Positions 5,995-25,102 of a stretch of DNA of 39,803 nt are shown piece after piece. The notes below the pieces were generated by a model. It searched no databases. It was not told where the DNA came from and saw only the letters and a program-made list of their open reading frames with translations. This DNA comes from Gemmatimonadales bacterium (GTDB lineage Bacteria > Gemmatimonadota > Gemmatimonadetes > Gemmatimonadales > GWC2-71-9). The translations under genes and the position numbers were made by a program. How positions within the stretch are numbered: position 1 is the stretch's first letter; each line of letters starts with the position of its first letter. The DNA is taken from contig JBOHSI010000205.1 in the NCBI GenBank assembly GCA_050733055.1, positions 1 through 39,803 on the forward strand, in the 5' to 3' direction.

Positions 5995-6027
5995 GGGGCC
6001 CGGGGCGCGAGCGAGCGCTCCGGCCCC
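5995..6027 (+). terminator. GC-rich stem-loop downstream of the KamA-family gene (possible terminator)
   Basis: GGGGCCCGGGGCGC (5995..6008) pairs with GCGCTCCGGCCCC (6015..6027), with one bulge and one mismatch. The loop is GAGCGA. There is no clear U-tract. Confidence 0.3.
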
Positions 6028-6052
6028 GTTGCTCGTTAAGATTCACACGACC

Positions 6053-7045
6053 ATGCGTGCCATGCTGTTGGACGTCCCGCGCCGCCCACTGCGCGCGGCC
6101 GACGTCGCCCGCCCCGAGCCCAAGCCCCACCAGATCCTGCTCACCGTGAAGGCGTGCGGCGTCTGCCGCACCGACCTCCACGTCATCGACGGAGACCTCC
6201 CCGACCCGAAACTGCCCCTCGTGCTCGGTCACGAGATCGTGGGGTCGGTGGTCGCGACCGGCGCGGAGGTCGCGCGCTTCACCCCCGGACAGCGGGTGGG
6301 CGTGCCGTGGCTCGGCTGGACCTGCGGCGCCTGCCGCTACTGCTGCGCGGGGTGCGAGAATCTGTGCGACCGCGCCCGGTTCACGGGCTACCAGCTCGAC
6401 GGCGGCTACGCCGAGTACGCGGTTGCGGACGCGCGCTTCGCATTCCCGATCCCGGACAGCTACGGGGACCTCGAGGCGGCACCGCTGCTCTGCGCTGGGC
6501 TGATCGGCTACCGCTCGCTGGCTGCCGCGGGAGCCGCTGAGCGGATCGGGCTGTACGGCTTCGGCGCCGCCGCGCACATCGTCGCCCAGGTCGCGCGCCA
6601 CCAGGGCCGGCGGGTCTTCGCGTTCACGCGCCCGGGAGACAGCGACGCCCAACAGTTCGCGCTCGCGCTCGGAGCAGAATGGGCGGGAGCGTCGGACGCG
6701 CCGCCGCCCCACTCGCTTGACGCGGCGATCATCTTCGCGCCCGTAGGCGCGCTCGTCCCCGCGGCGCTCCGCGCCGTGGTGAAAGGCGGGACAGTCGTGT
6801 GCGCCGGGATCCACATGAGCGAGATCCCCGCGTTTTCGTACGACATCCTCTGGGGAGAGCGCGTCATCCGTTCGGTGGCCAATCTCACACGGCAGGATGG
6901 CGAGCACTTCCTCGCGCTCGCCCCGAAGGTACCGGTGCGGACGGCAGTCGAACCGTACGCACTCGAGCGGGCGAACGAGGCGCTGGAGCGGCTGCGCGCG
7001 GGGAAGGTGCACGGGGCGGCGGTGCTGGAAATCCGATCGAGCTGA
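6053..7045 (+). CDS. Zinc-dependent alcohol dehydrogenase family oxidoreductase
   Basis: 'CGVCRTDLH', 'GHEIVG', and the structural-Zn motif 'CGACRYCCAGCENLC'. The ATG at 6053 is preferred over the TTG at 6029. Confidence 0.85.
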   Translation: MRAMLLDVPRRPLRAADVARPEPKPHQILLTVKACGVCRTDLHVIDGDLPDPKLPLVLGHEIVGSVVATGAEVARFTPGQRVGVPWLGWTCGACRYCCAGCENLCDRARFTGYQLDGGYAEYAVADARFAFPIPDSYGDLEAAPLLCAGLIGYRSLAAAGAAERIGLYGFGAAAHIVAQVARHQGRRVFAFTRPGDSDAQQFALALGAEWAGASDAPPPHSLDAAIIFAPVGALVPAALRAVVKGGTVVCAGIHMSEIPAFSYDILWGERVIRSVANLTRQDGEHFLALAPKVPVRTAVEPYALERANEALERLRAGKVHGAAVLEIRSS

Positions 7046-7110: not shown

Positions 7111-9261
7111 TCAGATGCGCGCCCGGAGCGCCTGGAAGCGCGGATCACCGCGCAACGAGTCGAGGTCCGAGTCGTTCTCCAGCCACTCCCGGTGCCCGAA
7201 CCCATTCTGGATCGCTTTCTCGAGGCAGCCGATCGCCTCGTCCGTCAGCCCCCGAAGTGCATACGCGCACGCCACGTTGTAGAGGATCCCCGGGTCCTCC
7301 TGATCCATGGCGTACGCCCGTCTGGCCCACTCGAGCCCCCGTTCGTTGTCGCCCAGCTGGATCCACGCGGTTGCACCCAAGACGAGAGCGCGAGCGTCGT
7401 CTGGGTTGAGCTCAAGGTGCTTCTCGGCCACCTGTAACCCCCGGCTGAGGGCCGCGTGAGCGTCTGCCGTGCGGCCCAGCGAGGTCAGGGGTGCCTGCAT
7501 CAGAAACAGTGCCTGGTAGTCTTCAGGGCGCACGCGCGAGGCATCTTCGTAATGCCGCACGGCCTCCTCCAGCTTGCCCTCCTGGAAGCACGCCCGCGCA
7601 TATAGGTAGTGCGCTTCGTACAACTTCGGGTTGAGCCGGATCGCGGTTTCGAACTCCCGCCGTGCCTCGTCGTACTGCCTGCTCAGGGACAAGGCGAACC
7701 CCCGGGACGCGTGCGCCTCGGCCAGCTCGGGATCGAGCTGAAGGGCCTTGCGGCTCGCGGAGTCCGCGCTCTCAAGATTGGCCTTGCTGCCGTCCCAGTA
7801 CATGTAGAGGAACGAGCAGCAGTCGGCGACCCCGGCGTACGCAAGGGCGTAGTCGGGGTCGATCTCGATGGCGCGCTCGAACATCCGGCGCGCGAACTGG
7901 ATGCCGGTGCGGCGGAACTGGTGGAAGAACTGCCGCCCGCGCAGGTAGTAGTCGTACGCCTGCACGTTCTCGGTCGGCGCCTTCTCGATCGCCCGTTTCT
8001 CTTCCTCGCTCAGCACCACCCGCAGCGCCTTGACGATGTTCTCGGCGATTTCGTCCTGGATCGCGAACACGTCCTGCAGCTCGCGGTCGTAGCGCTCTGA
8101 CCAGAGATGGTAGCCGTCGGCGACATTCACGAGCTGCGCCGTGACCCGCAGCCTGGTCCCCGCTTTCCGTACGCTGCCCTCGAGCACCGTCGCGACTTTC
8201 AGCTTCCGGCCGATCTCGCCGATGGCCGCGTTCTTCCCCTTGAACGCGAACGCCGAGGTCCGCGACGCCACGCGCAGCGCCTGGATCTTGGTGAGCGCGT
8301 TGATGATCTCCTCGGCGATGCCTTCGCAAAAATACTCCTGGTCCCGCTGAGAGCTCATGTCCGCGAACGGCAGCACCGCGATCGACTTCGCCGCGCCGGC
8401 CGGCATGCTTCCCGGCGGCGTCGAGCCGCCAGCGGGCCACGCGAGCGCCTGGGCGAACTGTGCGGCCGTCGTGTACCGCCCGGCCGGGGCCTTCGCCAGC
8501 GCCTTCAGCACCGCCTGCTCCAGCCAGTCAGGTACCTCATCCCGTCGTTCGCGGAGCCGGGGCACCGGATCCGTGAACAACCTCGCGATGATCGCCTGCA
8601 CCGTGGGCCCCGTGAACGGCGCCACCCCCCCCAGCATCTCGTACAGCACCGCGCCCAGGGAATAGATGTCGCTTCGCCCGTCCAGCTCGGCCTCCCCCGC
8701 CGCCTGCTCCGGGCTCATGTACGCCGGCGTGCCCACCGCGGTACCGGTCTGCGTCAGGTTCTCTGCCGCAGCCGTCACCGCCTTGGCGATCCCGAAATCG
8801 GTCACCACTGCCTCACCGTCGTGCAGCATCACGTTTTCGGGCTTGATGTCGCGGTGGACGATCTGGTGCCGGTGGGCGTAGTCCAGCGCCGACGCCACGG
8901 CCCGGGCCACCTGGAGCGCGTCCTCCAGCGGCAGCTGCCGCTCGCGCTCCAAGCGCTGGCGCAGCGATTCACCCTCGACGTAGGGCATCACGTAGTACAG
9001 GAGCTCCCCGGCCTGCCCGGAGTCGTACAGCGGGACGATGTGGGGATGCTGCAGGCGGGCCGCGATCTGGATCTCGCGCAGGAACCGGTCGGGCCCGAGG
9101 CTCACCGCCAGCTGGGGGTGCAGCACCTTCACGGCCACCGGGCGGTGGTGCCGCAGGTCCTGCGCGAGAAAAACCGTCGCCATGCCGCCGCGGCCGACTT
9201 CCCGCTCGATGGCGTAGCGGTCGGCCAGAGCGGTGCGAGCGCGGTCAACCAATTCAGCCAT
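7111..9261 (-). CDS. Hanks-type Ser/Thr protein kinase with C-terminal TPR domain (intact copy)
   Basis: 716-aa ORF. 'GRGGMATVFLA...AVKVL' (G-loop/VAIK), 'HRDIKPEN', 'DFGIAK', 'GTPAYMSPEQ'. These are followed by 'IAVLPFADMS...' and multiple TPR-like repeats. Confidence 0.9.
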   Translation of the reverse strand: MAELVDRARTALADRYAIEREVGRGGMATVFLAQDLRHHRPVAVKVLHPQLAVSLGPDRFLREIQIAARLQHPHIVPLYDSGQAGELLYYVMPYVEGESLRQRLERERQLPLEDALQVARAVASALDYAHRHQIVHRDIKPENVMLHDGEAVVTDFGIAKAVTAAAENLTQTGTAVGTPAYMSPEQAAGEAELDGRSDIYSLGAVLYEMLGGVAPFTGPTVQAIIARLFTDPVPRLRERRDEVPDWLEQAVLKALAKAPAGRYTTAAQFAQALAWPAGGSTPPGSMPAGAAKSIAVLPFADMSSQRDQEYFCEGIAEEIINALTKIQALRVASRTSAFAFKGKNAAIGEIGRKLKVATVLEGSVRKAGTRLRVTAQLVNVADGYHLWSERYDRELQDVFAIQDEIAENIVKALRVVLSEEEKRAIEKAPTENVQAYDYYLRGRQFFHQFRRTGIQFARRMFERAIEIDPDYALAYAGVADCCSFLYMYWDGSKANLESADSASRKALQLDPELAEAHASRGFALSLSRQYDEARREFETAIRLNPKLYEAHYLYARACFQEGKLEEAVRHYEDASRVRPEDYQALFLMQAPLTSLGRTADAHAALSRGLQVAEKHLELNPDDARALVLGATAWIQLGDNERGLEWARRAYAMDQEDPGILYNVACAYALRGLTDEAIGCLEKAIQNGFGHREWLENDSDLDSLRGDPRFQALRARI

Positions 9262-9410: not shown

Positions 9411-11342
9411 CCAAGAGCGCCTGGAACCGCGGGTCGCCGCGCAGCGAGTCGAGGTCGGAATCGTTCTCGATCCACCCCCGCAACCCGAAGCCGTATTGCA
9501 CCGCCTTTTCCAGGCACTTGACGGCGTCGTCGGTCTCGCCCTGAATGGCGACCGGTGGACCCGCCCCGCGTCCGCCTTGCGCCCCAGCCCATCATAGGTC
9601 TGTGACAGGAAGGAGGCGGCTTGATAGTCGTCCGGCCGAAGCCGGCACGCCTCCTCGAAGGACTGCGCCGCCTCGGCGAGCTTCCCTTGCTGGTATCGCG
9701 CCCGGGCGTAGAAGTAATGGGCTTCGAACAGCTTCGGATTCAGCTGGATCGCGATGTTGAACGCCTGTTCCGCTTCGGCATGTCGCCGGGCGAAGGCGAG
9801 GGCCAGTCCACGCGACGTGTGGGCTTCGGCGAGCTCGGGATCGAGTTCGAGGGCCTTCCGGCTCGCGGCGTCCGCTTGCTCCAGGTGCGCCGCGCTCGCG
9901 TCCCAGTAGGTGTAAATGAACGAGCAGCAGTCGGCAATCCCGGCGTAGGCGAGCGCGTAATTGGGGTCGACCTCGATCGCCCGCTCGAACATCCGCCGGG
10001 CGTACTCGACTCCCTTCCGCCGCCATTGGTGGAAGAACTGCCGCCCGCGCAGGTAGTAATCGTAGGCCTGCACGTTCGCCGTCGGCACCTTCTCGATCGC
10101 GCGCTTCTCGTCCTCACTCAGGACTACCCGCAGCGCCCGCACGATGTTCTCCGCGATCTCGTCCTGGATCGCGAACACGTCGGACATCTCCCGGTCGTAG
10201 CGCTCCGACCAGAGATGGTAGCCGTCGGCGACGTTCACCAGCTGCGCCGTGACCCGCAGCCTTGTCCCCGCTTTCCGCACGCTCCCCTCGAGCACCGTGC
10301 TGACGCTCAACTGCTCGCCGATCCTGCGGATGTCCTGGTTCTTCCCCTTGAACGCGAACGCCGACGTGCGCGAAGCCACGCGCAACGCCTGGATTTTCGT
10401 GAGGGAGTTGATGATCTCTTCCGCAATGCCGTCGGTGAAGTATTCATTCTCCGGATCGGCGCTCATGTTGACGAACGGCAACACGGCGATGGACTTCGCG
10501 GCGGTGGCTGCCTGGGCCGCCCAGGTCGCCGGCGTGCTGCCCGGCGGAGTCGTCACCCGCCCGGCGACGCCAGGGCCAGCGCAAACTGGGCGGCGGTGGC
10601 GAACCGGTCGGCCGGCACCTTGGCGAGGGCCCGGGTCACCGCGCGGTCGATCCAATCGGGCACGGTCTCCCGCGCCGAGCGGAGCGACGGCACGGGATCG
10701 GTGAAGCGCTTCGCCAGGATGGCCTGCGCCGTCGGCCCGGTGAATGGTGTCTCGCCGGCCAGCATCTCGTACAGCATGCAGCCAAGGGAGTAGATGTCGC
10801 TGCGCCCATCGAGCTCCGCTTCGCCCGCCGCCTGTTCGGGGCTCATGTAGGCCGGCGTGCCGACGGCAGCTCCGGTTTGCGTCAGGGTTTCCTTGCCGGC
10901 CACGCTGATGGCCTTGGCAATCCCAAAATCGGTCACCATCGCCTCGCCCTCATGGAGCATGACGTTTTCCTGGTGACGGTGGGCGTAATCGAGCGCGGCC
11001 GCGACGGCCCGGACCACCTGGAGGGCGTCTTCCAGCGGCGCGGAGCGATTCCCCCTCCACGTACGGCATCACGTAATAGAAAAGGCCGTTCGCCTGCCCC
11101 GAGTCGTAGAGTGGGAGGATATGGGGGTGCTGGAAGCGTGCCGCGATCTGGATCTCGCGCAGGAATCGCTCGGGCCCGAGATTGGCCGTGAGGTGGGGGT
11201 GAAGCACCTTCACGGCCACCGGACGGTGGTGCTTCAGATCCTGGGCCGCGTAGACCGTCGCCATGCCACCACGACCGACCTCCCGCTCGATGGCGTAACG
11301 GTCGGCCAGGGCACTCCCGAGGCGATCCAGGAGATTCTGCAT
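9411..11342 (-). pseudogene. Decayed tandem paralog of the Ser/Thr kinase-TPR gene
   Basis: Homology to 7111..9261 is split over ORFs 10950..11342, 10553..11017 and 9345..10655 plus an unlisted frame ending at the TGA at 9411.
- About 26 nt are deleted after 'YVEGESLR' (near 11037..11041), giving a frameshift.
- A 24-nt in-frame loss removes 'IVHRDIKP' (junction 10969/10970), so the sequence reads 'YAHRHQ-ENVML'.
- A 1-nt frameshift lies near 10555..10565.
- About 60 TPR codons are lost with a frameshift near 9545..9570.
- The C-terminal 'DSDLDSLRGDPRFQAL' is still readable. Confidence 0.8.
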
Positions 11343-11343
11343 A

Positions 11344-13440
11344 CTACGCCTTCGCCTCCTCCAGCTCTTTCTTCCGGGCCTCGACCACTTTCTGTGCCAC
11401 CTCCAGCGGGACTTCTTGGTACACGTGGAACTTCTGCCGGTACGTCCCGCGGCCGTGCGTCAGCGAGTGCAGCTGAGTGGCATAGCGGTCCAACTCCGCC
11501 TCCGGCACGTACGCCCGGACCTTCGCCAGCCGTCCGTCGGGCTCGGAGCCCAGGATCTGCCCTCGACGCGCGGAGAGGTCGCCCATCACCGCGCCGAGGT
11601 ACTCGTCGGGTGTCCACACCTCGAGCTCCAGGATCGGCTCGAGCAACACCGGCTTGCAGTTCGGACTCACGTTCCGGAACGCGAGGATCCCGGCCATCTT
11701 GAACGACATCTCGTTCGAGTCCACGTCGTGGTACGAGCCGTCGTACAGCTCCACTTTGAAGTCCACCACCGGATATCCCGCCACCGGACCGCGCGCCGCC
11801 GCTTCATGCATTCCCCGCTCCACGGCCGGGATGTATTGTCGCGGGATCACGCCGCCCACGATCTTGTCCTCGAACACGAACCCCGAGCCCCGCGGCAGCG
11901 GTGCCAGGCGGATCCAGCAGTCGCCGTACTGACCGCGGCCCCCGGTCTGCTTCTTGTGCTTCCCTTGCCCCTCGCCCCGCCCGCGGAACGTTTCACGGTA
12001 CGCGATCTTCGGCTTCGTAATCAGGGCGTGCACACCGAACTTCCGCGCGAGCCGACCCACGATGATCTCGAGATGCCGCTCGCCCAGGCCGTGGATCAGC
12101 GTCTGACCGAGCTCGCCGTTGTACTCGTGCTGGAACGTAGGATCCTCCTCGTGCAGCTTGTGCAGGCCGTTCGAGAGCTTCTCTTCTTCACCCCGCTGCC
12201 TGACCTCGATCGCCACCGTGATCACCGGCTCCGGGAACGGGATCTTGTGGAGGACGATCGGCCGCTCCCGAACCGAGAGCGTGTCATTCGTATGCGTGTC
12301 GTGCAGCTTGGCGACCACTCCGATGTCCCCTGCGTGCAGCTCGGCGATCTCCGAGCGGTCCTTGCCGACGCTTACGCAGAGATGGTTCAGCTTCTCCACC
12401 GCCTCGCGCGGCGCGTTGTAGACATCCTGACCATTCCGCACGAGCCCCGAGTACACGCGGAAGTACGTGACGTCGCCGACGTGCGGCTCGGACATGGTCT
12501 TGAAGACTTGGGCGACGAACGGTCCCGTGTCGTCGGGTTTGAGCGGCACGCGTTCCGCGCTCCTCCACTTTTGCGCGTCCACCGGCGGCCGCTCGTGCGG
12601 CGCCGGGAACAGCTCCACCATCTTGGACAGCAGCGCGCGCATGCCGTACGTCAGCTCGGCGGCGCCGCAGAACAGCGGGAACAGCTCGCCCTTGAGCATC
12701 CCGGCCTTCATCGCCCGGATGGCCTCATCCCGACCGATCTCCTCCCCGCCTAGATAGTGCTCGAGCAACGTATCGTCGGTCTCGGCGATGCGCTCGATCA
12801 GCTCCTTCGAGTACTCCTCGAAGCGTTCCCGGTACTCCGCCGGGACGTCCACCTCCTCGGATTCGCCCGCCTTGGTGCCCTTCTTGTACATGTGGCAGCG
12901 CTTCGAGAAGAGGTTGATGATCCCATGGAACTCGGGGCCCTCGCCCACCGGGATTTCCACGGGGATCACCTTCGGCGTGAGCAGGTCCTTGATCCGCCGG
13001 TACACCTTGTGGAAGTCGGCGTGCTCCTTGTCCATCAGGGAGACGAAGAACAAGCGCGGGATCCCGCGCGCTTCACAGTAATCCCACACTTTCTCGGTCC
13101 CAACCTCCACTCCACCCGTCGCTGACACGACCACGACCGCGGCGTCCGCGGCGTGCACGCCGGCGAGGGCCTCACCGGTGAAGTCGAGATAGCCGGGCGT
13201 ATCGATCAGGTTGACCTTCGTGTCCATCCACTCGGCCACGGCGAGGGCCAGGTTGATGGAGTACTTGCGCTCGATTTCGTCGGGGGTGTAATCGGTGAGG
13301 GCCGTACCGTCCTTCACAAACCCGTGGCGTTTGCTCGTACCGGCCACGAACGAGAGGGCGTCGACCAGGGAAGTCTTGCCACTCGCGCCGTGGCCCACGA
13401 CGGCCACGTTGCGGATCTCCGGTGTCTTGTACACGCGCAT
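11344..13440 (-). CDS. Elongation factor G paralog (EF-G2-like translational GTPase)
   Basis: Internal ATG (MRVYKTPEIRNVAVVGHGASGKTSLVDAL) of ORF 11344..13617, with AGGAG about 14 nt upstream. The G1 motif 'GHGASGKTS' resembles EF-G2-type rather than canonical 'AHIDAGKTT'. 'DTPGYLDF' and EF-G domains II-V are readable. No rpsL/rpsG/tuf neighbours. Confidence 0.85.
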   Translation of the reverse strand: MRVYKTPEIRNVAVVGHGASGKTSLVDALSFVAGTSKRHGFVKDGTALTDYTPDEIERKYSINLALAVAEWMDTKVNLIDTPGYLDFTGEALAGVHAADAAVVVVSATGGVEVGTEKVWDYCEARGIPRLFFVSLMDKEHADFHKVYRRIKDLLTPKVIPVEIPVGEGPEFHGIINLFSKRCHMYKKGTKAGESEEVDVPAEYRERFEEYSKELIERIAETDDTLLEHYLGGEEIGRDEAIRAMKAGMLKGELFPLFCGAAELTYGMRALLSKMVELFPAPHERPPVDAQKWRSAERVPLKPDDTGPFVAQVFKTMSEPHVGDVTYFRVYSGLVRNGQDVYNAPREAVEKLNHLCVSVGKDRSEIAELHAGDIGVVAKLHDTHTNDTLSVRERPIVLHKIPFPEPVITVAIEVRQRGEEEKLSNGLHKLHEEDPTFQHEYNGELGQTLIHGLGERHLEIIVGRLARKFGVHALITKPKIAYRETFRGRGEGQGKHKKQTGGRGQYGDCWIRLAPLPRGSGFVFEDKIVGGVIPRQYIPAVERGMHEAAARGPVAGYPVVDFKVELYDGSYHDVDSNEMSFKMAGILAFRNVSPNCKPVLLEPILELEVWTPDEYLGAVMGDLSARRGQILGSEPDGRLAKVRAYVPEAELDRYATQLHSLTHGRGTYRQKFHVYQEVPLEVAQKVVEARKKELEEAKA

Positions 13441-13523
13441 GGGCGCCGCCAACTCCTGCTGGGGGTGAGGAAAATATGAGGCGGAAAACGGGGAGTGGGC
13501 TAGACATAGGCTTGACGCACAGA

Positions 13524-13544
13524 CGCACAGCGCACCGCTGTGCG
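13524..13544 (-). terminator. 8-bp stem-loop just downstream of the MFS gene stop (possible terminator)
   Basis: CGCACAGC (13524..13531) pairs with GCTGTGCG (13537..13544) around a 5-nt loop. It lies 10 nt past the stop at 13554. The U-tract is weak. Confidence 0.3.
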
Positions 13545-13553
13545 CCCAGGCGC

Positions 13554-14750
13554 CTAGCCATTGAAGACTTGTGCACTGACCACTCGATCCCGTTCGATCT
13601 TCGGCACCCGGAGGCACACGACCCCCCCGAGCGCCATCACCACCCCCGCGGCCACGAACGCCGCCGACGGGGACCCGTCGTACACCCTGCCTATCACGAC
13701 CGGCCCGAGCAGCCGGCCGAGCGCCGAGAGGGCCTGGGCCGCGCCCAGCACCGTGCCCTGCTCAGCGGGATCGGCGAACACGGACACGAGCCCGGTGGCC
13801 GCGGGAGAGAACACGCTGTTCGAGAACGCGAGCACGACCGTCCACCCGTACAGGGCGGCGCTCGAGTGGAGCGCCGGGATCACCCCGATGGCGAGCGCCA
13901 TGCCGAAGGCGCCCACGATGAGGAGCCAGCGCTCGCCGAAGCGTCCGGCGAGCTTGCCGAAGAGATACCCCTGCACGACCGCTGCCGTCGCGCCGATCAC
14001 CGTGAAGAACCAACCCAGTTCCTGCTCGCGCCAGCCGAAGCTGACTCCGGCCCAGAGCGGCAGGGCGACCGTGTAACCCGAGAAGGCGAACGGCGCCACC
14101 GCCCATGCCGCCATGAGAGGCGCAAGCCGCGGGTGCCGGACCGCGTCGCCGATGTGCGAGAGGTCCCACATCCCACCCACGGTGCGGTGTTCCTCCCGGA
14201 GTGACTCGGGCAGGATGAAGTACGCCGATACGAAGTTCACGAGCGACAGCCCTGCGGCCACGAGTCCCGGCGCCGCGGGCCCGAGATAGTGAGCCGAGAG
14301 GCCACCCACAGCGGGGCCGATGATGAAGCCAAGCCCAAATGCCGCGCCGATGATCCCCATGCCGCGCGACCGCTCGGCGGGCGTCGTGATGTCCGCGATG
14401 TAGGCTTGGGCGGCGGAGATGTTGCCGCCCGCAAATCCGGAAACGACGCGCGCGACGAACAATACGGGATACGACTGGGCGGCTGCGAATAGCAGGTACC
14501 CGAGCGCGTTGACCACCATGGTCACCAGCAGGATCGGACGGCGGCCTACCCGGTCGGACGTGCGCCCCAGGAACGCGGTCGCGGCGAACTGCATCAGCGA
14601 GAACACACCCAGCAGCGCGCCGAGGCCGAACCCGCCCGCCCCCAGGCGCTGCGCGTAGTACGGCAGGATCGGGATGATGATGCCGAACCCGATCAGGTCG
14701 ATCAGGACCGTGAAGAAGATGACGGCGAAGCGGGAGCGGGCCGCGGGCAT
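13554..14750 (-). CDS. MFS transporter (TetA/drug-efflux-like)
   Basis: 398-aa ORF, 12-TM-like hydrophobic pattern. MFS loop motif 'GRTSDRVGRRPILL' between TM2 and TM3. Confidence 0.8.
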   Translation of the reverse strand: MPAARSRFAVIFFTVLIDLIGFGIIIPILPYYAQRLGAGGFGLGALLGVFSLMQFAATAFLGRTSDRVGRRPILLVTMVVNALGYLLFAAAQSYPVLFVARVVSGFAGGNISAAQAYIADITTPAERSRGMGIIGAAFGLGFIIGPAVGGLSAHYLGPAAPGLVAAGLSLVNFVSAYFILPESLREEHRTVGGMWDLSHIGDAVRHPRLAPLMAAWAVAPFAFSGYTVALPLWAGVSFGWREQELGWFFTVIGATAAVVQGYLFGKLAGRFGERWLLIVGAFGMALAIGVIPALHSSAALYGWTVVLAFSNSVFSPAATGLVSVFADPAEQGTVLGAAQALSALGRLLGPVVIGRVYDGSPSAAFVAAGVVMALGGVVCLRVPKIERDRVVSAQVFNG

Positions 14751-18126: not shown

Positions 18127-19029
18127 TCATGGCAGGTTCGCCCGGAGCCACTCACGCGCGATCGTCCTGATGTCGCGATGCCGCACGTCCGCGTCGGCAT
18201 TGAGCCGGCGCATCTCCGCATCCGAGAGCCGATCTGCCAGCTCGTCGAGAGCCGCCGTGACACCGGGATGGCGCTTCAACACCTCGGCCCGGATCACGGG
18301 CGCCGCCTCGTAGGGCGGGAAGTAGTGTCGGTCGTCCTCGAGCGCCACGAGATCGAGCGCCTCGATCTGGCCGTCGGTCGAGTTTCCCGCGATCAGATCC
18401 ACCCGTCCGTCGGCGAGAGCGCGATAGGTGAGGCCCAGGTCCATCGCGGTCGGCGGCGCGGCAAGGGTGAGGCCATACGTCCTCGCGAGCCCCGCGAAGC
18501 CATCCGCCCGCTCGAGGAACTCGTAGCCGAACCCGGCGCGCCACCCCGGCGCCACCCGCGCGACATCCGACACCGTCTTAAGCCCGTGCCGCTCGGCGTC
18601 GCGGCGACGCACCACGATCGCGAACGTGTTGTTGAACCCGAACGGCTTGCCCCACACGATCCCGAAGCGCTCCCGGTACTCGGCCGCGACCGCCCGGTAC
18701 ACGCTGTCCCGGTCCTGCACGGGCGGGTGCTTGAGCACCGCGGTGAACGCCGTGCCCGTGTACTCGACGTACAAGTCGATCCGCCCCGACGTGATCGCCT
18801 GGTGACACACGAACGTGCCTCCGAGGTGCAGTCGGCGCCCTACCGGCATGCCGGTCCGGCGCTCGATTTGCTGCGCCACGATCTCGGCGAGCAGATCGGA
18901 CTCCGTGAAGTTCTTCGCGCCCACGACGACGCGGTCCCGACGGCTGCAGCCGGCGGCGAGCACCAGGGCGGCACACCCAAACCGGAACCACCGACCGCCC
19001 GGCCGGCCGGCCGCCTGACCGCCTCTCAT
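18127..19029 (-). CDS. Osmoprotectant/quaternary-amine ABC transporter substrate-binding lipoprotein (OpuC/OsmF-like)
   Basis: Internal ATG (MRGGQAAG...) making an ATGA overlap with the permease stop. Lipobox-like 'VLAAGC'. 'VVVGAKNFTESDLLAEIVAQ...IDLYVEYTGT' is typical of OpuAC-fold glycine-betaine-type binding proteins. Confidence 0.75.
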   Translation of the reverse strand: MRGGQAAGRPGGRWFRFGCAALVLAAGCSRRDRVVVGAKNFTESDLLAEIVAQQIERRTGMPVGRRLHLGGTFVCHQAITSGRIDLYVEYTGTAFTAVLKHPPVQDRDSVYRAVAAEYRERFGIVWGKPFGFNNTFAIVVRRRDAERHGLKTVSDVARVAPGWRAGFGYEFLERADGFAGLARTYGLTLAAPPTAMDLGLTYRALADGRVDLIAGNSTDGQIEALDLVALEDDRHYFPPYEAAPVIRAEVLKRHPGVTAALDELADRLSDAEMRRLNADADVRHRDIRTIAREWLRANLP

Positions 19030-19664
19030 TTCGGCCGCCACCCGAGCCTCCGCTCCGCCAAGCCGAGGAGCCCGTCCGCCGCGAGCGCCAGCAGCGCCGC
19101 CGGCAGTGCCCCGGCGAGGATCAGCGTGTCGTTCACCATGGCCACGCCGCGGAAGATGTACTCGCCGAGGCCGCCCGCACCTATCGCCGCCGCGATGGTC
19201 GCGGTGCCGACACTCACCACCGTGGCGACCCGGACACCCGCGAGGATCACCCCGAGGGCGAGCGGCAGCTCGACCATGAGCAGCAGCTGGCGGTCCGTCA
19301 TGCCCATCCCGCGCCCGGCGTCCCGCACCGCAGGGTCCACACCGGCGATCCCGGTGTACGTGTTCCGGACGATGGGCAGCAGCGCGTACAGCACCAGCGC
19401 CACGATCGCGGTGCGCGCGCCGATCCCACCGATGAAGGGAAGCGGGATGAGGAACCCGAACAGCGCGAGACTCGGAATCGTCTGGAATACGTTCGCGAGC
19501 CCGAGCACCGGGCCACGCCACGCCGGTCGGCGCGTGAGCAGGACGCCGAGCGGCAAGCCGATGGCGGTCGCCGCCCCCGTGGAGATGGCGACGAGGTAGA
19601 TGTGCTGCCAGAACAGGGCGAGCGCCTCACCGGAGTTCTGCGCATAGAGCTGAAAGAGCCTCAT
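19026..19664 (-). CDS. ABC transporter permease (OpuCB/ProW-like)
   Basis: 212-aa ORF. BPD-transporter EAA-like region 'VDPAVRDAGRGMGMTDRQLLLMVELPLA'. Confidence 0.8.
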   Translation of the reverse strand: MRLFQLYAQNSGEALALFWQHIYLVAISTGAATAIGLPLGVLLTRRPAWRGPVLGLANVFQTIPSLALFGFLIPLPFIGGIGARTAIVALVLYALLPIVRNTYTGIAGVDPAVRDAGRGMGMTDRQLLLMVELPLALGVILAGVRVATVVSVGTATIAAAIGAGGLGEYIFRGVAMVNDTLILAGALPAALLALAADGLLGLAERRLGWRPK

Positions 19665-19668
19665 ACGT

Positions 19669-20397
19669 TCACGCGGCTGCCATGAACGCCTGGCACTCCG
19701 GGTGGTCCGCCGCGCGGAACTCCTCTGGCGTCCCCAGAAAGACCAACCTGCCCCCGTACATCAGCCCGATCCGGGTGGCGAGCATGAGACCCTCGCGCAC
19801 GTCGTGGGTCACGAACACCATCGCCTTGCCGAGGCGCCCCTCGAGCGAGCGGAACTCGCGCTGCAGCTCCACCCGCGTGATCGGGTCGAGCGCGCCGAAC
19901 GGCTCGTCCAGGAGCAGGAGCGTCGGGTCGGCGGCGAGCGCCCGCGCCACACCGACACGCTGGCGCTGCCCGCCCGAGAGCTGATGCGGGTAGCGCCCGG
20001 CGAACACCTCGGGATCGAGCCCCACCAGCGCGAGCAGCTCGCGCACCCGCGTCGCGATCCGCGGCGCGGGCCACCCCTCGAGCCGGGGCACGAGGCCCAC
20101 GTTGTCTCCAACAGTGAAGTGCGGGAACAGCCCGATCTCCTGGATCACGTACCCGATCCGGCGCCGGAGCCGCGTCACGGGGACGGCCACGGTGCGCTCG
20201 CCCGCGACGCGCACGTCCCCCGCCGTAGGCTCGAGCAGCCGGTTGATGAGTTTGAGTGTGGTCGTCTTCCCGGAACCGCTGCGGCCGAGCAGGACGAGCG
20301 TCTCCCCGGCGCCTACCGTGAACGACACCCCATCCACGAGGGCTCGCCCGGTCGGCAGTTCATAACCGAGGCCCCGCACCTCGAGCGCTGCGGTCAC
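19669..20397 (-). CDS. ABC transporter ATP-binding protein
   Basis: Walker A 'GRSGSGKTT', signature 'LSGGQRQR', Walker B 'LLLLDEP'. The GTG at 20397 is preferred because it forms a GTGA overlap with the upstream methyltransferase stop. The track ORF extends to 20451. Confidence 0.8.
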   Translation of the reverse strand: MTAALEVRGLGYELPTGRALVDGVSFTVGAGETLVLLGRSGSGKTTTLKLINRLLEPTAGDVRVAGERTVAVPVTRLRRRIGYVIQEIGLFPHFTVGDNVGLVPRLEGWPAPRIATRVRELLALVGLDPEVFAGRYPHQLSGGQRQRVGVARALAADPTLLLLDEPFGALDPITRVELQREFRSLEGRLGKAMVFVTHDVREGLMLATRIGLMYGGRLVFLGTPEEFRAADHPECQAFMAAA

Positions 20398-21332
20398 CGG
20401 AGCCCGGCCAGGGCCATCAGGAAGCGGTCGTCGTCGCTCCGGCCCTGCCACTGCGCACCCAGGCCGGCGTCGGAGAGAATCCGGAGGAAGGTGTCCGGGG
20501 CGTACTTATACGAGTGGTTCATGTCGAGCCGGTCGCCGCGCTCGAGCCGCAGCGTTTCGCCGCCCATCTGCACGTCGATCGGTTGCGCCGCGCGGAAGTG
20601 CTTGGAGATGAAGTGCAGACCCGGCAGCCGGGGATCGCCCGCGGCCTCGAACACGAGCTCGCCGTCCTCGTCCCGGATACCCACCGCGTGCAGCGGCGCC
20701 CAGGCGAAGCGGCGGTTCAGCGGGTTGTCGTAACCGGCGAGCGTGGTGTCGCCCGCGTAGAGCTCGCCGTCCACGAGCAGCCGGTCGCCGGGCCGGAGCA
20801 GGGCAGCCAGTTGGCGTGCCTGGGCGATCGGATCGAACGCGCCCAGCGTATTACCGATGAGTAGGACGAGGCGCGGCGCACTCTCGGCCTCGGCCGCGAG
20901 CGCCGCGAGGTGCTCCAGCTTCGTGAAGTCGGCCTTGATGCCGTGGGCCGGGAGGCCGGCCCGAAGCGCGCCGCCGCACGCCATCTCGAGCAGGGCCTGG
21001 CTCGTATCGACGGGGACGTACGCCAAGCGCACACCGTGTTCGCGCAATGCCTCGAGCAAGATCAGGTCCTTGTCTCCCTGTCCCGAGCCGAGGCTGAGCA
21101 CTTCGAGGGGGCCGGGCGAGAAGCGGCGGGCCAACTCGCCCGCCGAACGCGCGATGAGGGAGCGCGACCGCACGAAGTTCCGGTACGCGCCGTCCGAGCA
21201 GAGCGCGAGCCAGGCACGCACGGACAGCGGGAACCAATAGAAGAACTTCTCCGCGAGGCGCCGCGCCTCGAAGGAAGCAACAAACTCGTCCGCGAGCTCG
21301 TTCTCGGTGACGAGCGTTTCGATCGGGATCAT
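20394..21332 (-). CDS. EgtD-like SAM-dependent methyltransferase (Methyltransf_33 / histidine N-alpha-methyltransferase family, divergent)
   Basis: 312-aa ORF. The family layout is recognisable by eye: 'VLSLGSGQGDKDLILLEAL', 'YVPVDTSQALLE', 'LLIGNTLGAFDP', 'GYDNPLNRRF', 'MNHSYKYAP', 'DDRFLMAL'. Several substrate-pocket positions differ from canonical EgtD (for example 'GNTLGAF' versus 'GSTIGN'). Confidence 0.55.
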   Translation of the reverse strand: MIPIETLVTENELADEFVASFEARRLAEKFFYWFPLSVRAWLALCSDGAYRNFVRSRSLIARSAGELARRFSPGPLEVLSLGSGQGDKDLILLEALREHGVRLAYVPVDTSQALLEMACGGALRAGLPAHGIKADFTKLEHLAALAAEAESAPRLVLLIGNTLGAFDPIAQARQLAALLRPGDRLLVDGELYAGDTTLAGYDNPLNRRFAWAPLHAVGIRDEDGELVFEAAGDPRLPGLHFISKHFRAAQPIDVQMGGETLRLERGDRLDMNHSYKYAPDTFLRILSDAGLGAQWQGRSDDDRFLMALAGLR

Positions 21333-21366: not shown

Positions 21367-21395
21367 TTGACGGGCCCGACGGCAACCCGTAGGAT
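21367..21395 (+). promoter_or_regulatory. Candidate sigma70-like promoter (TTGACG-17 nt-TAGGAT) for the small-peptide operon
   Basis: TTGACG at 21367..21372, an exact 17-nt spacer, TAGGAT at 21390..21395. This is about 45 nt upstream of the ATG at 21441, in the 108-bp divergent intergenic region. Confidence 0.45.
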
Positions 21396-21440
21396 TGTAC
21401 GAACAGCCGTCTTTGAATCACTCTCACGCAGGAGGATCAG

Positions 21441-21533
21441 ATGCAGATCGTCGAGACGCAGGAACTCGTGCCCAGCTGTCATCGTCCCGAAATCATCGAG
21501 ACGAGCGAGCTGCAGCCGACCTGCCACTCCTGA
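21441..21533 (+). CDS. Putative RiPP precursor peptide, 30 aa: MQIVETQELVPSCHRPEIIETSELQPTCHS (not in supplied ORF track)
   Basis: Hand translation. AGGAGG at 21430..21435 lies 5 nt before the ATG, and the TGA is at 21531..21533. 24 of 29 sense codons after the ATG end in G/C, matching the genomic coding bias. There are two tandem 12-aa repeats, IVETQELVPSCH and IIETSELQPTCH. It sits immediately upstream of the DUF692/MNIO-like operon. Confidence 0.6.
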   Translation: MQIVETQELVPSCHRPEIIETSELQPTCHS

Positions 21534-21545
21534 GGGTGCGGCTGA

Positions 21546-22505
21546 ATGCGCCCGGGGGCCCGGACTGATTTCGGGCCCCCTCCGCGTTTCATAACGTCCG
21601 AACCCCGTCTCGGGTTCGGCGCGTGGGCGGTGGGGGGCGAGGGGTGGGGAACGCCAGCAGACGAGCGCGACCGCACCGCCGCCGTCGAGCGAGCTGTCGA
21701 GCGCGGCATCGACTTCTTCGATACGGCGCCCACGTACGGCGACGGTGCCTCGGAAACCCTGCTCGGCCGGGCCCTCCGGCCCTACCGCGAGCAGGTCACG
21801 ATCGCCACGAAGGTCGGGCCCTACCACGAGCCGCGCCGATCCCTCGAGGCGTCGCTGCGCCGCCTGGCGTGCGACCAGGTGGATCTCGTCCAGCTGCACG
21901 AAACACTCGACGGCTGGGAGTGGCGGCTGGAGAAGCTCCATGCGTTGCAAGAGGAAGGAAAGACCGTCGCCATCGGGCTCTGCAACGCCACCCGCCGACA
22001 GCTCGCCCACGCGCTCGAGATCGCGCCGGTGGTCACCTGCCAGGCGCCATACAACCTGTTCGACCGCGACGTCGAGCAGCGGGAGCTGCCGCTGTGCCGC
22101 CAACGCGGGCTCGGCTTCCTCGCCTATCGCCCACTCGCCTCGGGGCTTTTGACCGGCAAGTACGCCATGGTTGCGATCGTGCTTGCGGGCGCGCGAGACG
22201 CCCGGCAGGTGGACGAGAACGCGGCGGCGCACGCACGACGGCTCACCCCGCAGGAAGTCGCCGCCATCGACGAGATCGTGGCGGAAGTGTTCCGGCCCGC
22301 GCGCGCCACCGAGCGGGCGCACGCGCTCGCCGCGAGCTGGGGTATCCGCGAGCGGTTCATCGTCGAGCGGCTCGACGGGGCGACGACCTACGAGGCGATC
22401 GCGGCCGTGTGGACGGACACGGGTGAACGACCGATGATCGCAGCCCAAGTCAAGGTGTTCGTCGACCAGTTACGGGAGCAGGAACTCGTTGAAGCTGAGA
22501 GCTGA
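21546..22505 (+). CDS. Aldo/keto reductase with a C-terminal PqqD/RRE-like extension
   Basis: AKR tetrad context is present: 'FFDTAPTYGDG' (D, Y), 'IATKVG' (K), 'LVQLHE' (H). GAGGGTG lies 7 nt before the ATG. The barrel looks shortened after 'SGLLTGKY'. The last ~70 aa, 'IVERLDGATTYEAIAAVWTDTGERPMIAAQVKVFVDQLREQELVE', resemble a PqqD-type winged helix. Confidence 0.65.
   Translation: MRPGARTDFGPPPRFITSEPRLGFGAWAVGGEGWGTPADERDRTAAVERAVERGIDFFDTAPTYGDGASETLLGRALRPYREQVTIATKVGPYHEPRRSLEASLRRLACDQVDLVQLHETLDGWEWRLEKLHALQEEGKTVAIGLCNATRRQLAHALEIAPVVTCQAPYNLFDRDVEQRELPLCRQRGLGFLAYRPLASGLLTGKYAMVAIVLAGARDARQVDENAAAHARRLTPQEVAAIDEIVAEVFRPARATERAHALAASWGIRERFIVERLDGATTYEAIAAVWTDTGERPMIAAQVKVFVDQLREQELVEAES
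21554..21580 (+). promoter_or_regulatory. Perfect 9-bp GC stem-loop after the peptide ORF (attenuator or mRNA-stability element candidate)
   Basis: GGGGGCCCG (21554..21562) pairs with CGGGCCCCC (21572..21580) around the 9-nt loop GACTGATTT, followed by TCCGCGTTTCAT. It lies 21 nt after the peptide stop and within codons 3-12 of the next ORF. Confidence 0.45.
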
Positions 22506-22511
22506 CGGCTG

Positions 22512-23300
22512 ATGGCTGCTTTGATGGTTGGCGCGTTCTACAACCCCCACCTCGGCGGCGAGCTCGCCGAGGCGACCGGCATCGACCATCTGGCCATGGC
22601 CGACCCCCCGGCGCCCACCGATCCGCACTGGCCCGTCATCCAGCAGCGCTATACCCTGCTGCTTCACGACTACCTCGGCCAGCTCTCCGAGCCGCTCGAC
22701 GAGCGCTCCATCCAGCGGGCGCGCGCGCTCGCTGATCTGTATCGCTCGCCGTGGGTCGCCGAGCACTTCCAGTGCCTGCACACCGAGGATGGCGCCTACA
22801 ACCTGAACTACGTGTTCCCCCCGCTGTACACGGAGGAGTTCCTCGACCGCTTCGTGCGAAACGCGACTGCGCTCAAGGCCCGGCTCGACCAGCCGCTCGT
22901 GATGGAGAACATCCCCGGTTTCTTCGACGTGCAGGCAAGCCAGATGCCGGAGCCGGTCTGGCTGCGTCGCTTCTTCGAGACGACGGAGGTCGGGTTCCTG
23001 CTCGATTTGCCGCACGTCTGGCTCGAGGCACACTATCACGACATGGCTCCCGAGCGCTGGCTCGCCGAGTTCCCGCTCGAGCACGTCGTGGAGCTGCACG
23101 TCGCAGGCGTCGAACAAGACGACGACCTCGAGGGCCCGTGGATCGCTCCCGCCGAGCCGTCGAACGAGATGCTTGACTTCCTGGCCACCACGGTCGAGCG
23201 CTGCCCCAAGGCGAAAGCGGTGACGTTCGACGCGTTCTCACCCTCCCTCACCGGCGACGTCTTGTTTCGGAGTGTCGAGCGGATTCGAGCGGCGCTGTGA
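22512..23300 (+). CDS. DUF692 / MNIO-like (MbnB/TglH-type) TIM-barrel protein, divergent
   Basis: 262-aa ORF starting 6 nt after the AKR stop. DUF692-like landmarks by eye: 'SPWVAEHFQC', 'VFPPLYTEEFL', 'PLVMENIPGFF', 'GFLLDLPHVW', 'VVELHVAGV', and C-terminal 'KAVTFDAF'. Confidence 0.55.
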   Translation: MAALMVGAFYNPHLGGELAEATGIDHLAMADPPAPTDPHWPVIQQRYTLLLHDYLGQLSEPLDERSIQRARALADLYRSPWVAEHFQCLHTEDGAYNLNYVFPPLYTEEFLDRFVRNATALKARLDQPLVMENIPGFFDVQASQMPEPVWLRRFFETTEVGFLLDLPHVWLEAHYHDMAPERWLAEFPLEHVVELHVAGVEQDDDLEGPWIAPAEPSNEMLDFLATTVERCPKAKAVTFDAFSPSLTGDVLFRSVERIRAAL

Positions 23301-24064
23301 GCGATCGCCGGCTGCAGGATCAGGTCATCCGTGCGCTCGCCGATGCTCCGTACCGAGCCTCGCCCGAGTGGCGGCGCGGCGCGCTGGCCGATCCGGAGCG
23401 TGTCGAGCGCTACGCGCGATTCCTCGCACGGCATTTCTACTACGAGCGGATCGTCCACTTCTTCAAGTACTCGGGCGCCCTGGCGCGCATCACCGGCCGG
23501 CGGCCCGAGGCCGTCCTCAGGCGGCCGGGATTCGAGGCGCTGCTTTCCGCCATCGTGCTCGGGAGCCGCGAGAGCGCGCGCGCGGTGGCGCGGCTCGTGG
23601 CCGAGTATGTGTCCGAAAACGATGCGGGCATTGCCTATGTGCAGGATCTCCTGCGCTACGAGCGGACGATGATGGCGGTCGAGGCTGGGCCGCGGGTGTG
23701 GCGAGAAACAGGGAAGGGGGAGGGGGGAAAGGGGGAGCGTGGGCTGCCTGAGACCGTGGAAGGAACGGTGCTGCTCGAGCTTAGCTACGACCTCCCGGCG
23801 GTGTTGCCCAAGTTGTTGCAGCCCTGGACCGAAGTGCCGCAGGCGCCGCAGCGGCCCGTGCGGCTGCTCATCGCGCGCTCGCCGCACGGGCGGGTCGCTG
23901 TCGCGCGTAGCGATGAGGGGGTGGCTGCCGTGCTCGAGCTGGCCGACGGGCGGCGTACCCTGGCGGATCTGGCGCGGGCGGCCCGCCTGGAGCCAGCGGT
24001 AGTGAAGGAGATGCTCCGGGGGCTCTTCGATCTCGGCGCCGTGCGGTTCTCGACGGGGAGTTGA
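23297..24064 (+). CDS. Partner protein of the DUF692-like enzyme with C-terminal RRE/PqqD-like domain
   Basis: 255-aa ORF. GTGA overlap with the upstream stop. The C-terminal 'VAAVLELADGRRTLADLARAARLEPAVVKEMLRGLFDLGAVRF' resembles a PqqD-type peptide-binding winged helix. A low-complexity 'GKGEGGKGERG' insert is present. No other family was recognised. Confidence 0.45.
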   Translation: MSDRRLQDQVIRALADAPYRASPEWRRGALADPERVERYARFLARHFYYERIVHFFKYSGALARITGRRPEAVLRRPGFEALLSAIVLGSRESARAVARLVAEYVSENDAGIAYVQDLLRYERTMMAVEAGPRVWRETGKGEGGKGERGLPETVEGTVLLELSYDLPAVLPKLLQPWTEVPQAPQRPVRLLIARSPHGRVAVARSDEGVAAVLELADGRRTLADLARAARLEPAVVKEMLRGLFDLGAVRFSTGS

Positions 24065-24132
24065 GCGGAGCGGTAGCAACCTGGCGCCGCGCCGGGTAAC
24101 TTCGATGTGCAATCGTACCACAGGAGCATCCT

Positions 24133-24537
24133 TTGAACGCCCGCTCGACAGCCCTGTCGCTCGCCACGGTGGCCGTCCTCTCGGCGTGCGGCGGCGCGAG
24201 CAGCCAGGCGAGGAGTCGCGAGCCCGCACCAGCGCGCAGCGGCGACGTCGTCACGAGAGAGGAACTCGAAAAGAGCTCGTCCAACTCCAGTCTGTACGAG
24301 GCCCTCCGCAGTCTCCGGCCCAACTGGTTCCGCAAGATCCCGACGACGCTTCGCCCCCAGGCGGAAGGAGACATCGTCGTCTACCTCGACCAAAGCCGCC
24401 TCGGCGGCCTCGAGTCGCTGCGGACGATCTTCGTCTCGTCCGTCACGACGGTGAGGTATTACAGCCCGTCTGAGGCCCAGGGTCGTTTCGGTCTGGGACA
24501 CCTCCATGGCGCCATCCAGGTCAGCACGTTGCGATGA
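24133..24537 (+). CDS. Small lipoprotein with TonB-dependent-receptor plug-like domain
   Basis: TTG start with CAGGAG 6 nt upstream. Lipobox 'VLSAC'. 'VVTREELEKS...LYEALRSLRPNWF...IVVYLDQSRLGGLESLRTI...VRYYSPSEAQGRFG...GAIQVST' follows the plug-domain pattern. It is a paralog of 25969..26358. Confidence 0.5.
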   Translation: MNARSTALSLATVAVLSACGGASSQARSREPAPARSGDVVTREELEKSSSNSSLYEALRSLRPNWFRKIPTTLRPQAEGDIVVYLDQSRLGGLESLRTIFVSSVTTVRYYSPSEAQGRFGLGHLHGAIQVSTLR

Positions 24538-24577
24538 GGGCCCTGCTCGGCCTCGCGGCGATGGGGCTCGCGCCCCG

Positions 24578-25102
24578 ATGACCGCCACGATTGCCCGTCC
24601 CGAGGCCACCGAGTACGCTCCGTTCTACGGCACGTACGTGTCCAAGGTGCCGGAAGGCGATCTCCTCGAAGCGTTGGAGGCACAAAGACGCGAAACCCAG
24701 GCACTCCTGAAGGCCATCCCCGAGGCGAAGGCGCTGCACCGCTATGCCCCGGGGAAGTGGAGCGTTAAAGAAGTCGTCGGCCACCTGGCGGACACCGAGC
24801 GTGTGTTCTGTTACCGTGCGCTCCGGTTCGCGCGCGGCGACCAGACGCCGCTGGCGGGGTTCGACGAGAAAGCGTACGTACCCGCGGGCGGGTTCGATGC
24901 CCGCCCCGTGGCGGACCTCGCAGCGGAACTGGACGCGGTGCGGCGCGCGACGATCGCGCTGCTCGGAAGCCTCGACGCCGCAGCGCTCGCACGCCGGGGC
25001 ACGGCCGACGGCAAGGAGGTGTCGGTGCGGGCCCTAGCCTACATCATCGCCGGCCACGAGCGCCACCACTTCGCGATCCTGCGGGAGCGCTACTTGACAT
25101 GA
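24578..25102 (+). CDS. DinB-family (DinB_2) metal-dependent protein
   Basis: Internal ATG (MTATIARPEATEYAPFYGTY...). 'KWSVKEVVGHLADTERVF' and 'IAGHERHHFAILRERY' supply the DinB His triad context. Confidence 0.7.
   Translation: MTATIARPEATEYAPFYGTYVSKVPEGDLLEALEAQRRETQALLKAIPEAKALHRYAPGKWSVKEVVGHLADTERVFCYRALRFARGDQTPLAGFDEKAYVPAGGFDARPVADLAAELDAVRRATIALLGSLDAAALARRGTADGKEVSVRALAYIIAGHERHHFAILRERYLT

Follow-up and report, generated by a model that had tools for sequence, protein, structure and literature searches.

A fast-growing body of unprecedented peptide chemistry comes from multinuclear non-heme iron oxidative enzymes (MNIOs, DUF692), and finding their substrates is the hardest part of studying them, since small open reading frames (ORFs) go unannotated; a survey of the MNIO landscape notes that such ORFs are missed and that, for this reason, many minor types of precursor have yet to be identified. 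In the 3-thiaglutamate (pearlin) pathway of Pseudomonas syringae, TglH and its partner TglI act on the thiol of a C-terminal Cys, and the scaffold peptide later releases a small amino acid. In the aminopyruvatide pathway of Burkholderia, which uses ApyH and ApyI, a methyltransferase acts on the MNIO product. The captophorins, bufferins and oxazolin (BufB, HvfB, FonB) have tandem MNIO-modified Cys motifs whose number varies between species, and in methanobactin biosynthesis (MbnABC) an MNIO and its partner modify two Cys of a short peptide. Here we describe a related locus in a 39,803-nucleotide stretch of a Gemmatimonadales bacterium (assembly GCA_050733055.1, contig JBOHSI010000205.1; ~68% G+C), which in its entirety we call the window. 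An earlier note, made from the sequence alone, had proposed that a 30-codon ORF at 21441-21533 encodes a two-core precursor beside a DUF692 homolog. Our analysis indicates that this ORF very probably encodes a genuine substrate peptide of the neighboring MNIO, because it is conserved and co-inherited with a TglH-like MNIO, a TglI-like partner, domains of the RiPP (peptide made by ribosomes and then modified post-translationally) recognition element (RRE) type, and a methyltransferase.

The ORF lies on the plus strand, and its 30 codons, followed by a stop, translate as MQIVETQELVPSCHRPEIIETSELQPTCHS, exactly as the earlier note had given. The translation contains two 12-residue cassettes, IVETQELVPSCH and IIETSELQPTCH, with an RPE linker between them, as that note had also described. 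The peptide starts with its first acidic cassette: it has no leader, no signal peptide and no hydrophobic N terminus. A Shine–Dalgarno sequence, AGGAGG, was indeed found at a suitable distance (21430-21435, plus strand, with a 5-nt spacer to the ATG), and the use of G or C at third codon positions is high (25 of 30 positions by our count, 24 of 29 in the earlier one). The divergent intergenic region upstream also holds a sigma-70-like promoter candidate (TTGACG-17-TAGGAT, 21367-21395, plus strand), recognized by its match to the consensus alone, with one site observed compared with 0.0 expected in shuffled sequences.

Scanning one genome per species gave 80 related loci, with MNIO identities of 61–95%, from metagenome-assembled genomes (MAGs) of Gemmatimonadales, Gemmatimonadaceae, Actinomycetota and Terriglobales; all of the sequences compared in this study come from uncultured MAGs and metagenomes. 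A same-strand ORF with the motif E..[ED][LIVM].P.CH was present upstream of the MNIO gene at 73 of the 80 loci, and further metagenome contigs carried it as well. Of the seven others, six end at a contig edge before the expected position and one (L046) is rearranged; none has a disrupted copy, and we therefore did not count these loci against conservation. The ORF is exactly 93 nt long in 60 loci, among which there are 50 distinct nucleotide sequences. Within these 93-nt ORFs, we found no frameshift or internal stop, the variable sites were distributed as 13, 8 and 25 over codon positions 1, 2 and 3, and the ratios of nonsynonymous to synonymous changes were low, with a pN/pS of 0.23 and a dN/dS of 0.19. 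A core Shine–Dalgarno element (GGAG, GAGG or AGGA) occurred no more than 20 nt upstream of the peptide ORF in 72 of 76 loci. The homolog search, the substitution bias and the frame integrity that the earlier note had named as checks thus all came out in favor of a coding sequence, and this pattern of substitution indicates that the 30-codon ORF is a real, conserved small gene under purifying selection.

In the rearranged locus L046 (positions 1-1700), the last 95 residues of a reductase described below, which correspond to its PqqD-like part, form a separate ORF (1411-1698) ahead of the MNIO gene, and the region upstream contains neither the peptide nor the methyltransferase; a deletion or a chimeric contig could each account for this arrangement.

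Comparison of 98 cassettes from 40 distinct peptides gave the consensus unit [ILV][VI]E[TA]xE[LV]xP[TS]CH, in which Cys and His are each invariant (98 of 98 units), Pro is present in 97 of 98, and the two acidic positions are kept in at least 93 of 98. Cassette number differs between lineages, always in frame. All 60 Gemmatimonadales loci encode two cassettes; Terriglobales-type Acidobacteria encode three, with the C terminus exactly at the last His; Actinomycetota encode three or four, with units that follow one another without a linker in L067 and L069; and Gemmatimonadaceae encode four. Beyond the last cassette, the peptides end with Ser, Ala, Thr or Val, or directly at His. These in-frame changes in repeat number fit independent cassettes that each carry their own recognition stretch, and, together with the invariant Cys-His pair, they support the proposal in the note that each unit is an acidic recognition stretch followed by a P-S/T-C-H site. 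Multi-core precursors built from near-identical cassettes, each with its own recognition stretch, are known from the cyanobactins and the fungal dikaritins, which are made by entirely different families of enzymes.

The peptide and its variants gave no match to any Pfam or NCBIfam model. Searching 5.8 billion proteins with a profile built from an alignment of 16 peptides returned 182 peptide clusters, of which none has a Pfam domain and all that are named in their source are called "hypothetical protein". The same label is attached to the exact peptide of the window and to its variants wherever they are called in other assemblies. The sources recorded for the exact peptide are JGI/IMG, Logan and ENA, with NCBI not among them, which fits a gene that is uncalled in the NCBI record of this contig. 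The earlier claim that the ORF would be missed by gene callers is therefore consistent with the NCBI record, although it does not extend to the other assemblies, in which the ORF has been called.

Immediately after the peptide gene, at 21554-21580 on the plus strand, the sequence can form a GC-rich 11-bp hairpin, GGGGGCCCGGA...UCGGGCCCCC, with a weak U-tract after it (fold z = -4.2). The hairpin begins 20 nt after the peptide stop codon and falls within the first codons of the next ORF, which encodes the reductase. A stem of 10–15 bp is found 16–38 nt after the peptide stop in 68 of 74 loci, and the stems of Gemmatimonadaceae and Actinomycetota occupy the same position with unrelated sequences. 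The consensus structure has 10 pairs, five of which show compensatory double changes. Beside the hairpin, the ATG of the reductase and a GGGAG upstream of it are conserved, and a second stem is visible at ~21594-21623. Hairpins after the peptide gene are seen in many precursor-first RiPP operons, and here the element is likely to be a partial terminator or a stabilizer, which would increase the amount of precursor transcript relative to that of the enzymes.

A short ORF that contains codons for Cys and His and is followed, 20 nt on, by a conserved GC-rich hairpin and a weak U-tract is also what would be expected of a regulatory leader peptide, in which case the supply of Cys or His would control the hairpin and the expression of the reductase and MNIO genes, and the peptide would be no enzyme's substrate. 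We regard this explanation as the most improbable of those considered. The amino-acid sequence of the whole cassette, not just its codon content, is kept across three phyla; the predicted fold of 21400-21600 shows no anti-terminator pairing between the ORF and an arm of the hairpin; and the downstream genes are not those of Cys or His biosynthesis. Two peptide-binding domains and an MNIO, moreover, need a peptide substrate, and we noticed no other conserved small ORF beside the operon, for which no systematic search was made.

The MNIO gene itself (22512-23300, plus strand) encodes a protein with a strong match to PF05114 (96 bits compared with a cut-off of 25). Its best scores against the NCBIfam models of characterized MNIOs were 104 bits for ApyH, 87 for BufB and 53 for HvfB, which are so far under the respective cut-offs of 400, 310 and 360 that the protein falls in no named subfamily and forms a distinct one. 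At least 850 relatives were found at E ≤ 1e-10, and the best 120 of these are all at least 81% identical to it. The nearest solved structure by sequence is TglH (identity ~22%), with MbnB giving no sequence match at E < 0.01. We also modeled the protein with AlphaFold2 (predicted local distance difference test score [pLDDT] 83, predicted template-modeling score [pTM] 0.84), noting that the alignments used for modeling were low in diversity, with rows 69–89% identical to the query. When solved structures were ranked by similarity to the model, TglH came first (E = 5.5e-17, template-modeling [TM] score 0.77-0.79), followed by the Histophilus DUF692 protein 3BWW and MbnB (E ~1e-13).

In the alignment with TglH, residues H52, H85, E132, D165 and H196 of the MNIO coincide with TglH H71, H107, E151, D184 and H216, which places identical residues at five of the six Fe1/Fe2 ligand positions; at the sixth, TglH N187 is replaced by H168. 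D240, D203 and D205 are candidate equivalents of TglH E258, D229 and H231, positions that lie outside the reliable part of the alignment. All of these candidate iron ligands, H168 included, are invariant in 85 orthologs. TglH Asn73, the residue that orients the Cys, is replaced by Tyr54.

The start of the next gene (23297-24064, plus strand) overlaps the MNIO stop codon. Its product matches the NCBIfam ApyI model with E = 4.6e-9 (36 bits, under the cut-off of 200), and its AlphaFold2 model (pLDDT 79, pTM 0.75) consists of a helical N-terminal domain and a C-terminal winged-helix, RRE-like domain of three strands and three helices. The best matches in the PDB, over the full length, were the TglI structures 8hi7_A and 8hci_A (E = 7.9e-5, TM score 0.55-0.57), followed by the DUF2063 protein 3DEE and then winged-helix regulators. 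In the related loci, the partner gene always comes after the MNIO gene; in loci of the L006 type, a gene for an LssY_C-domain protein was annotated between the two. The claim of a precursor beside a DUF692 homolog is thereby supported, with both an MNIO and a TglI-like partner encoded downstream of the peptide.

Between the peptide and MNIO genes of Gemmatimonadota and Actinomycetota lies the reductase gene (21546-22505, plus strand, in the window), which encodes an aldo-keto reductase (Aldo_ket_red, 158 bits) fused to a C-terminal PqqD-like, RRE-type domain (residues ~253-319; PqqD, E = 0.0095). The C-terminal ~65 residues match PqqD in 13 of 17 diverse orthologs, with the best match at E = 5e-5 and 20.9 bits, under the PF05402 cut-off of 23.4. 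A PDB profile search with this domain returned chance-level matches alone, so the PqqD assignment is one made by Pfam. In the scaffold-peptide pathways of pyrroloquinoline quinone and mycofactocin, whose enzymes are likewise of other families, a PqqD-type domain recruits the enzyme to the peptide.

Together, these features suggest that the peptide is best read as a leaderless, multi-cassette RiPP-type precursor for a TglHI-like MNIO pair. Alternatively, the peptide could share the operon as an independent micropeptide, for instance a chaperone that binds metal or a regulator, with the MNIO acting on a substrate encoded elsewhere, and some MNIOs in the landscape survey did lack an identified precursor nearby. 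We consider this improbable. Whatever genes surround them, those for the peptide, the MNIO and the partner remain linked in every lineage; a repeated cassette that always contains Cys agrees with what is known of MNIO substrate logic; and the operon carries RRE-type domains.

By analogy, then, the system appears to work like TglHI, ApyHI and MbnBC, in which an MNIO and its partner act on a small peptide. The likeness is greatest to TglHI, with TglH and TglI the best structural matches of the two proteins, a partner of the TglI/ApyI group (non-DUF2063; type 2 in the landscape survey) and a peptide without a signal peptide. The locus differs from TglHI in that no peptide aminoacyl-tRNA ligase (PEARL), or LanB-like protein, was found among the window ORFs scanned with Pfam, and in that the Cys, instead of standing at the C terminus, is encoded internally, always before His, in two to four repeats. 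ApyH and ApyI are the top-scoring NCBIfam models for the MNIO and the partner, but the scores are far under the equivalog cut-offs, the methyltransferase is of a different family, and the C-terminal Asp of ApyA, the C-B-X2-3-G motif, and the genes for a B12-dependent radical S-adenosylmethionine (SAM) enzyme and a cytochrome P450 have no counterparts here. The tandem Cys motifs recall the captophorins, bufferins and oxazolin, yet those peptides have Sec signal peptides or leaders (DUF2282 or EGKCG repeats, the EGKCG motif being without His), DUF2063 partners and often DoxX, whereas the present peptide is leaderless and cytoplasmic, with a TglI-like partner. Methanobactin shares the modification of two Cys of a short peptide, and MbnB is a structural neighbor of the MNIO, but MbnA has a leader and a core. 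We know of no methanobactin cluster with a Methyltransf_33 methyltransferase or an aldo-keto reductase. With ApyH, BufB and HvfB scores under their cut-offs and with no C-terminal Asp, signal peptide, DUF2063 partner or PEARL, the system lies outside every named family that we tested.

Divergent from the peptide gene lies a gene (20394-21332, minus strand) for a SAM methyltransferase of the Methyltransf_33 (EgtD/EasF) family (PF10017, 85 bits). By tblastn, the methyltransferase gene occupies this divergent position at each of the 71 loci whose upstream DNA is long enough, which span three phyla; the Terriglobales proteins are 38–40% identical to that of the window, and the gene is likewise placed in the independent metagenome contigs L081, L082 and L084-86. 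The protein scored 69.5 bits against the EgtD equivalog TIGR03438, compared with a cut-off of 290.9, and its profile alignment with EgtD covers nearly the whole length (E = 1.7e-15). EgtD has been reported to hold the free carboxylate of its substrate through Tyr56, Tyr206 and Ser284 and to bind the alpha-amino group through Asn166, with Glu282 as a further His-binding residue. The equivalents of Tyr56, Tyr206 and Ser284 are invariant in the cluster methyltransferases. To our knowledge, every characterized member of Methyltransf_33 N-methylates a free (aromatic) amino acid, a generalization that we checked for EgtD only.

Downstream of the methyltransferase gene, on the same minus strand, are the genes of an OpuBC/OsmF-type ABC (ATP-binding cassette) importer (18127-20451), which comprise an ATPase (19669-20451), a permease (19026-19664) and a binding protein (18127-~19101). 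The Pfam matches are OpuAC (215 bits), BPD_transp_1 and ABC_tran, and the NCBIfam matches are of the OsmF and ProV types. Among PDB neighbors of the binding protein, OpuBC and OpuCC came at ~1e-52 and the ergothioneine-binding protein EgtUC at 4e-48 (rank 12). Binding proteins of this F-III class (OpuBC/OpuCC and EgtUC) hold a quaternary amine in an aromatic cage. The importer is found with the cluster at essentially every Gemmatimonadales locus, including L037 and L041, where it has been relocated to the other side, and an orthologous importer stands beside the methyltransferase, on the opposite strand, in the Acidobacteria-type contig L084 (3762-6054; identities of 54%, 60% and 56% for binding protein, permease and ATPase, respectively). 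Because the linkage occurs in two phyla with differing gene order, it argues for a functional tie, and we infer from it that the importer belongs to the system.

Based on these components, we propose that the ribosomally made peptide would serve the MNIO pair as a substrate or scaffold. The hydrophobic-acidic IVExxEL stretch of each cassette would bind the winged-helix domain of the partner as a beta-strand, and the same stretch might also be bound by the PqqD-like domain of the reductase. Docking would bring the Cys within P-[ST]-C-H to the MNIO iron cluster, by analogy with TglHI and MbnBC, for an oxidative transformation with O2 beside the invariant His. The reductase, where present, may then reduce a carbonyl created on the peptide, and the methyltransferase would methylate the product. 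Our tentative view of the end product is that the cassettes are cut up, each releasing the same small Cys/His-derived amino acid, which the methyltransferase would N-methylate. Such an N-methylated amino acid, possibly a betaine, could be recognized by the linked importer of the quaternary-amine type. We slightly favor a released small molecule because of the recognition stretch in each cassette, the activity, as far as we know, of characterized Methyltransf_33 enzymes on free amino acids, the conserved carboxylate-binding residues of the methyltransferase and the linkage of a quaternary-amine importer.

An intact peptide as the product is the other possibility of weight, somewhat doubtful but well short of unlikely. 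Its two to four His and Cys-derived sites would bind copper or another metal, for cytoplasmic buffering or in a manner like that of a chalkophore; the Cys would become a heterocycle or a thio-carbonyl (5-thiooxazole, or oxazolone and thioamide), and the methyltransferase would modify the peptide itself. Most of the characterized Cys-modifying MNIOs in the literature do yield metal-binding groups, and His, the invariant neighbor of the Cys, is well known as a ligand of metals. A peptide with two sites resembles methanobactin with its two chelating pairs, and a TonB-dependent receptor gene adjoins the cluster in L081. The MNIO and its partner, however, are nearest TglHI and ApyHI and not the thiooxazole-forming BufB and HvfB with their DUF2063 partners, the peptide has neither a signal peptide nor a leader, the methyltransferase keeps the carboxylate-binding residues of EgtD, and a linked quaternary-amine importer would be unexpected for a metallopeptide.

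Several observations weigh against the release of a methylated small molecule or against parts of the proposed pathway. The cluster does not consistently encode a protease, which would also be in keeping with an intact product, and the fixed repeat number within a lineage (two in the 60 Gemmatimonadales loci) fits such a product at least equally well. In the methyltransferase, EgtD Asn166 is replaced by Ala or Gly and Glu282 by Asn or Ser, and in L083, a 1.6-kb contig, a Crp-type regulator instead of the methyltransferase lies directly upstream. The linked transporter is of an importer class, and neither the Terriglobales loci L076-L080 nor the Actinomycetota loci have it. The reductase fusion is absent from Terriglobales and from L042 and L054, for which reason we take the minimal unit to be methyltransferase, peptide, MNIO and partner. 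In addition, the reductase barrel of the window, when compared with L047, lacks ~52 residues (after LLTGKY) that are kept in 56 of 58 orthologs. The residues of the D-Y-K-H motif are still visible in the shortened protein, which may be impaired by this loss; the loss could be gene decay or an assembly artefact.

A more specific version of the released-molecule proposal draws on ergothioneine biosynthesis. The cluster methyltransferase belongs to the EgtD/EasF family and keeps its carboxylate-holding residues, the linked binding protein shares its F-III quaternary-amine class with EgtUC, and the peptide supplies an adjacent Cys, as a sulfur source, and His. The cluster could be a peptide-templated route to a sulfur-containing histidine betaine, that is, an ergothioneine- or ovothiol-like thiohistidine. 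In such a route, the MNIO would transfer sulfur from the encoded Cys to the imidazole ring of the His beside it, the reductase would handle the carbonyl left at the former Cys, the modified His would be released and then N-methylated by the EgtD-family methyltransferase, and the importer of the EgtU/OpuBC class would recapture the product. We consider this route unlikely. The methyltransferase is under the EgtD equivalog cut-off and does not conserve Asn166 and Glu282, and the binding protein is at least as near to OpuBC and OpuCC as to EgtUC. In the window we found no EgtB/FGE-sulfatase, EgtC, EgtE, pyridoxal phosphate (PLP) lyase or LanB-like gene.

The gene content around the core varies. 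A DinB_2 family protein with a thiol-transferase-like fold (24506-25102, plus strand; Pfam DinB_2, 104 bits) is encoded after the partner gene in the window, and we considered it as a core component but rejected it, having found it downstream in no lineage but Gemmatimonadales, and there in only some of the loci; it may be an accessory gene, weakly linked to the cluster. Between the partner and DinB_2 genes, at 24105-24537, there is conserved coding sequence, of one or more ORFs, without a family match (79% identical in L001). Loci of the L047 type carry an extra gene between reductase and MNIO (3836-4987); an assignment to the S33 peptidases was rejected in favor of the MetX-like alpha/beta-hydrolase family of NCBIfam (NF005071, 487 bits). 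In L006, operon inserts at 5789-6985 and 7637-9137 comprise the LssY_C-domain protein and, after it, an ArsC-family protein, DUF4760 and DinB_2. In the Acidobacteria-type contig L081, the methyltransferase gene has two metalloprotease genes of the TldD/PmbA family as direct neighbors, and the TonB-dependent receptor follows the partner gene (3274-6809 and 10387-14283); processing and uptake are possible functions of these proteins. In the actinomycetotal locus L067 (679-2646), the DNA just upstream of the methyltransferase gene encodes a Cys/Met-metabolism PLP enzyme and a TetR regulator; the family of this PLP enzyme includes C-S lyases. Outside the cluster, the window contains housekeeping or unrelated genes. 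Among them, at 4419-5970, is a GNAT acetyltransferase gene next to that of a lysine-2,3-aminomutase-like radical SAM enzyme, a pair that resembles ablB/ablA of the osmolyte N-epsilon-acetyl-beta-lysine.

The present precursor is not among the types listed in the MNIO landscape survey, and the open-access literature that we searched describes neither this family of precursors nor an MNIO cluster from Gemmatimonadota, nor Methyltransf_33 in a RiPP cluster. The loci define a family of gene clusters for modified peptides, hitherto undescribed, that occurs in soil Gemmatimonadota, Acidobacteriota and Actinomycetota, and they pair a widespread uncharacterized clade of MNIOs with its probable substrate. 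A cassette-only, leaderless peptide, an invariant Cys-His pair, an EgtD-family methyltransferase, and an aldo-keto reductase that carries a fused domain for peptide binding are features for which the literature searched offers no precedent. The four-gene unit of methyltransferase, peptide, MNIO and partner is directly expressible. If the thiohistidine route were true, an MNIO acting on a gene-encoded Cys-His would take the place of the EgtB and OvoA sulfoxide synthases. Were the product a peptide-derived amino-acid betaine or a thiohistidine, it would represent a new biosynthetic logic for microbial antioxidants or osmolytes.

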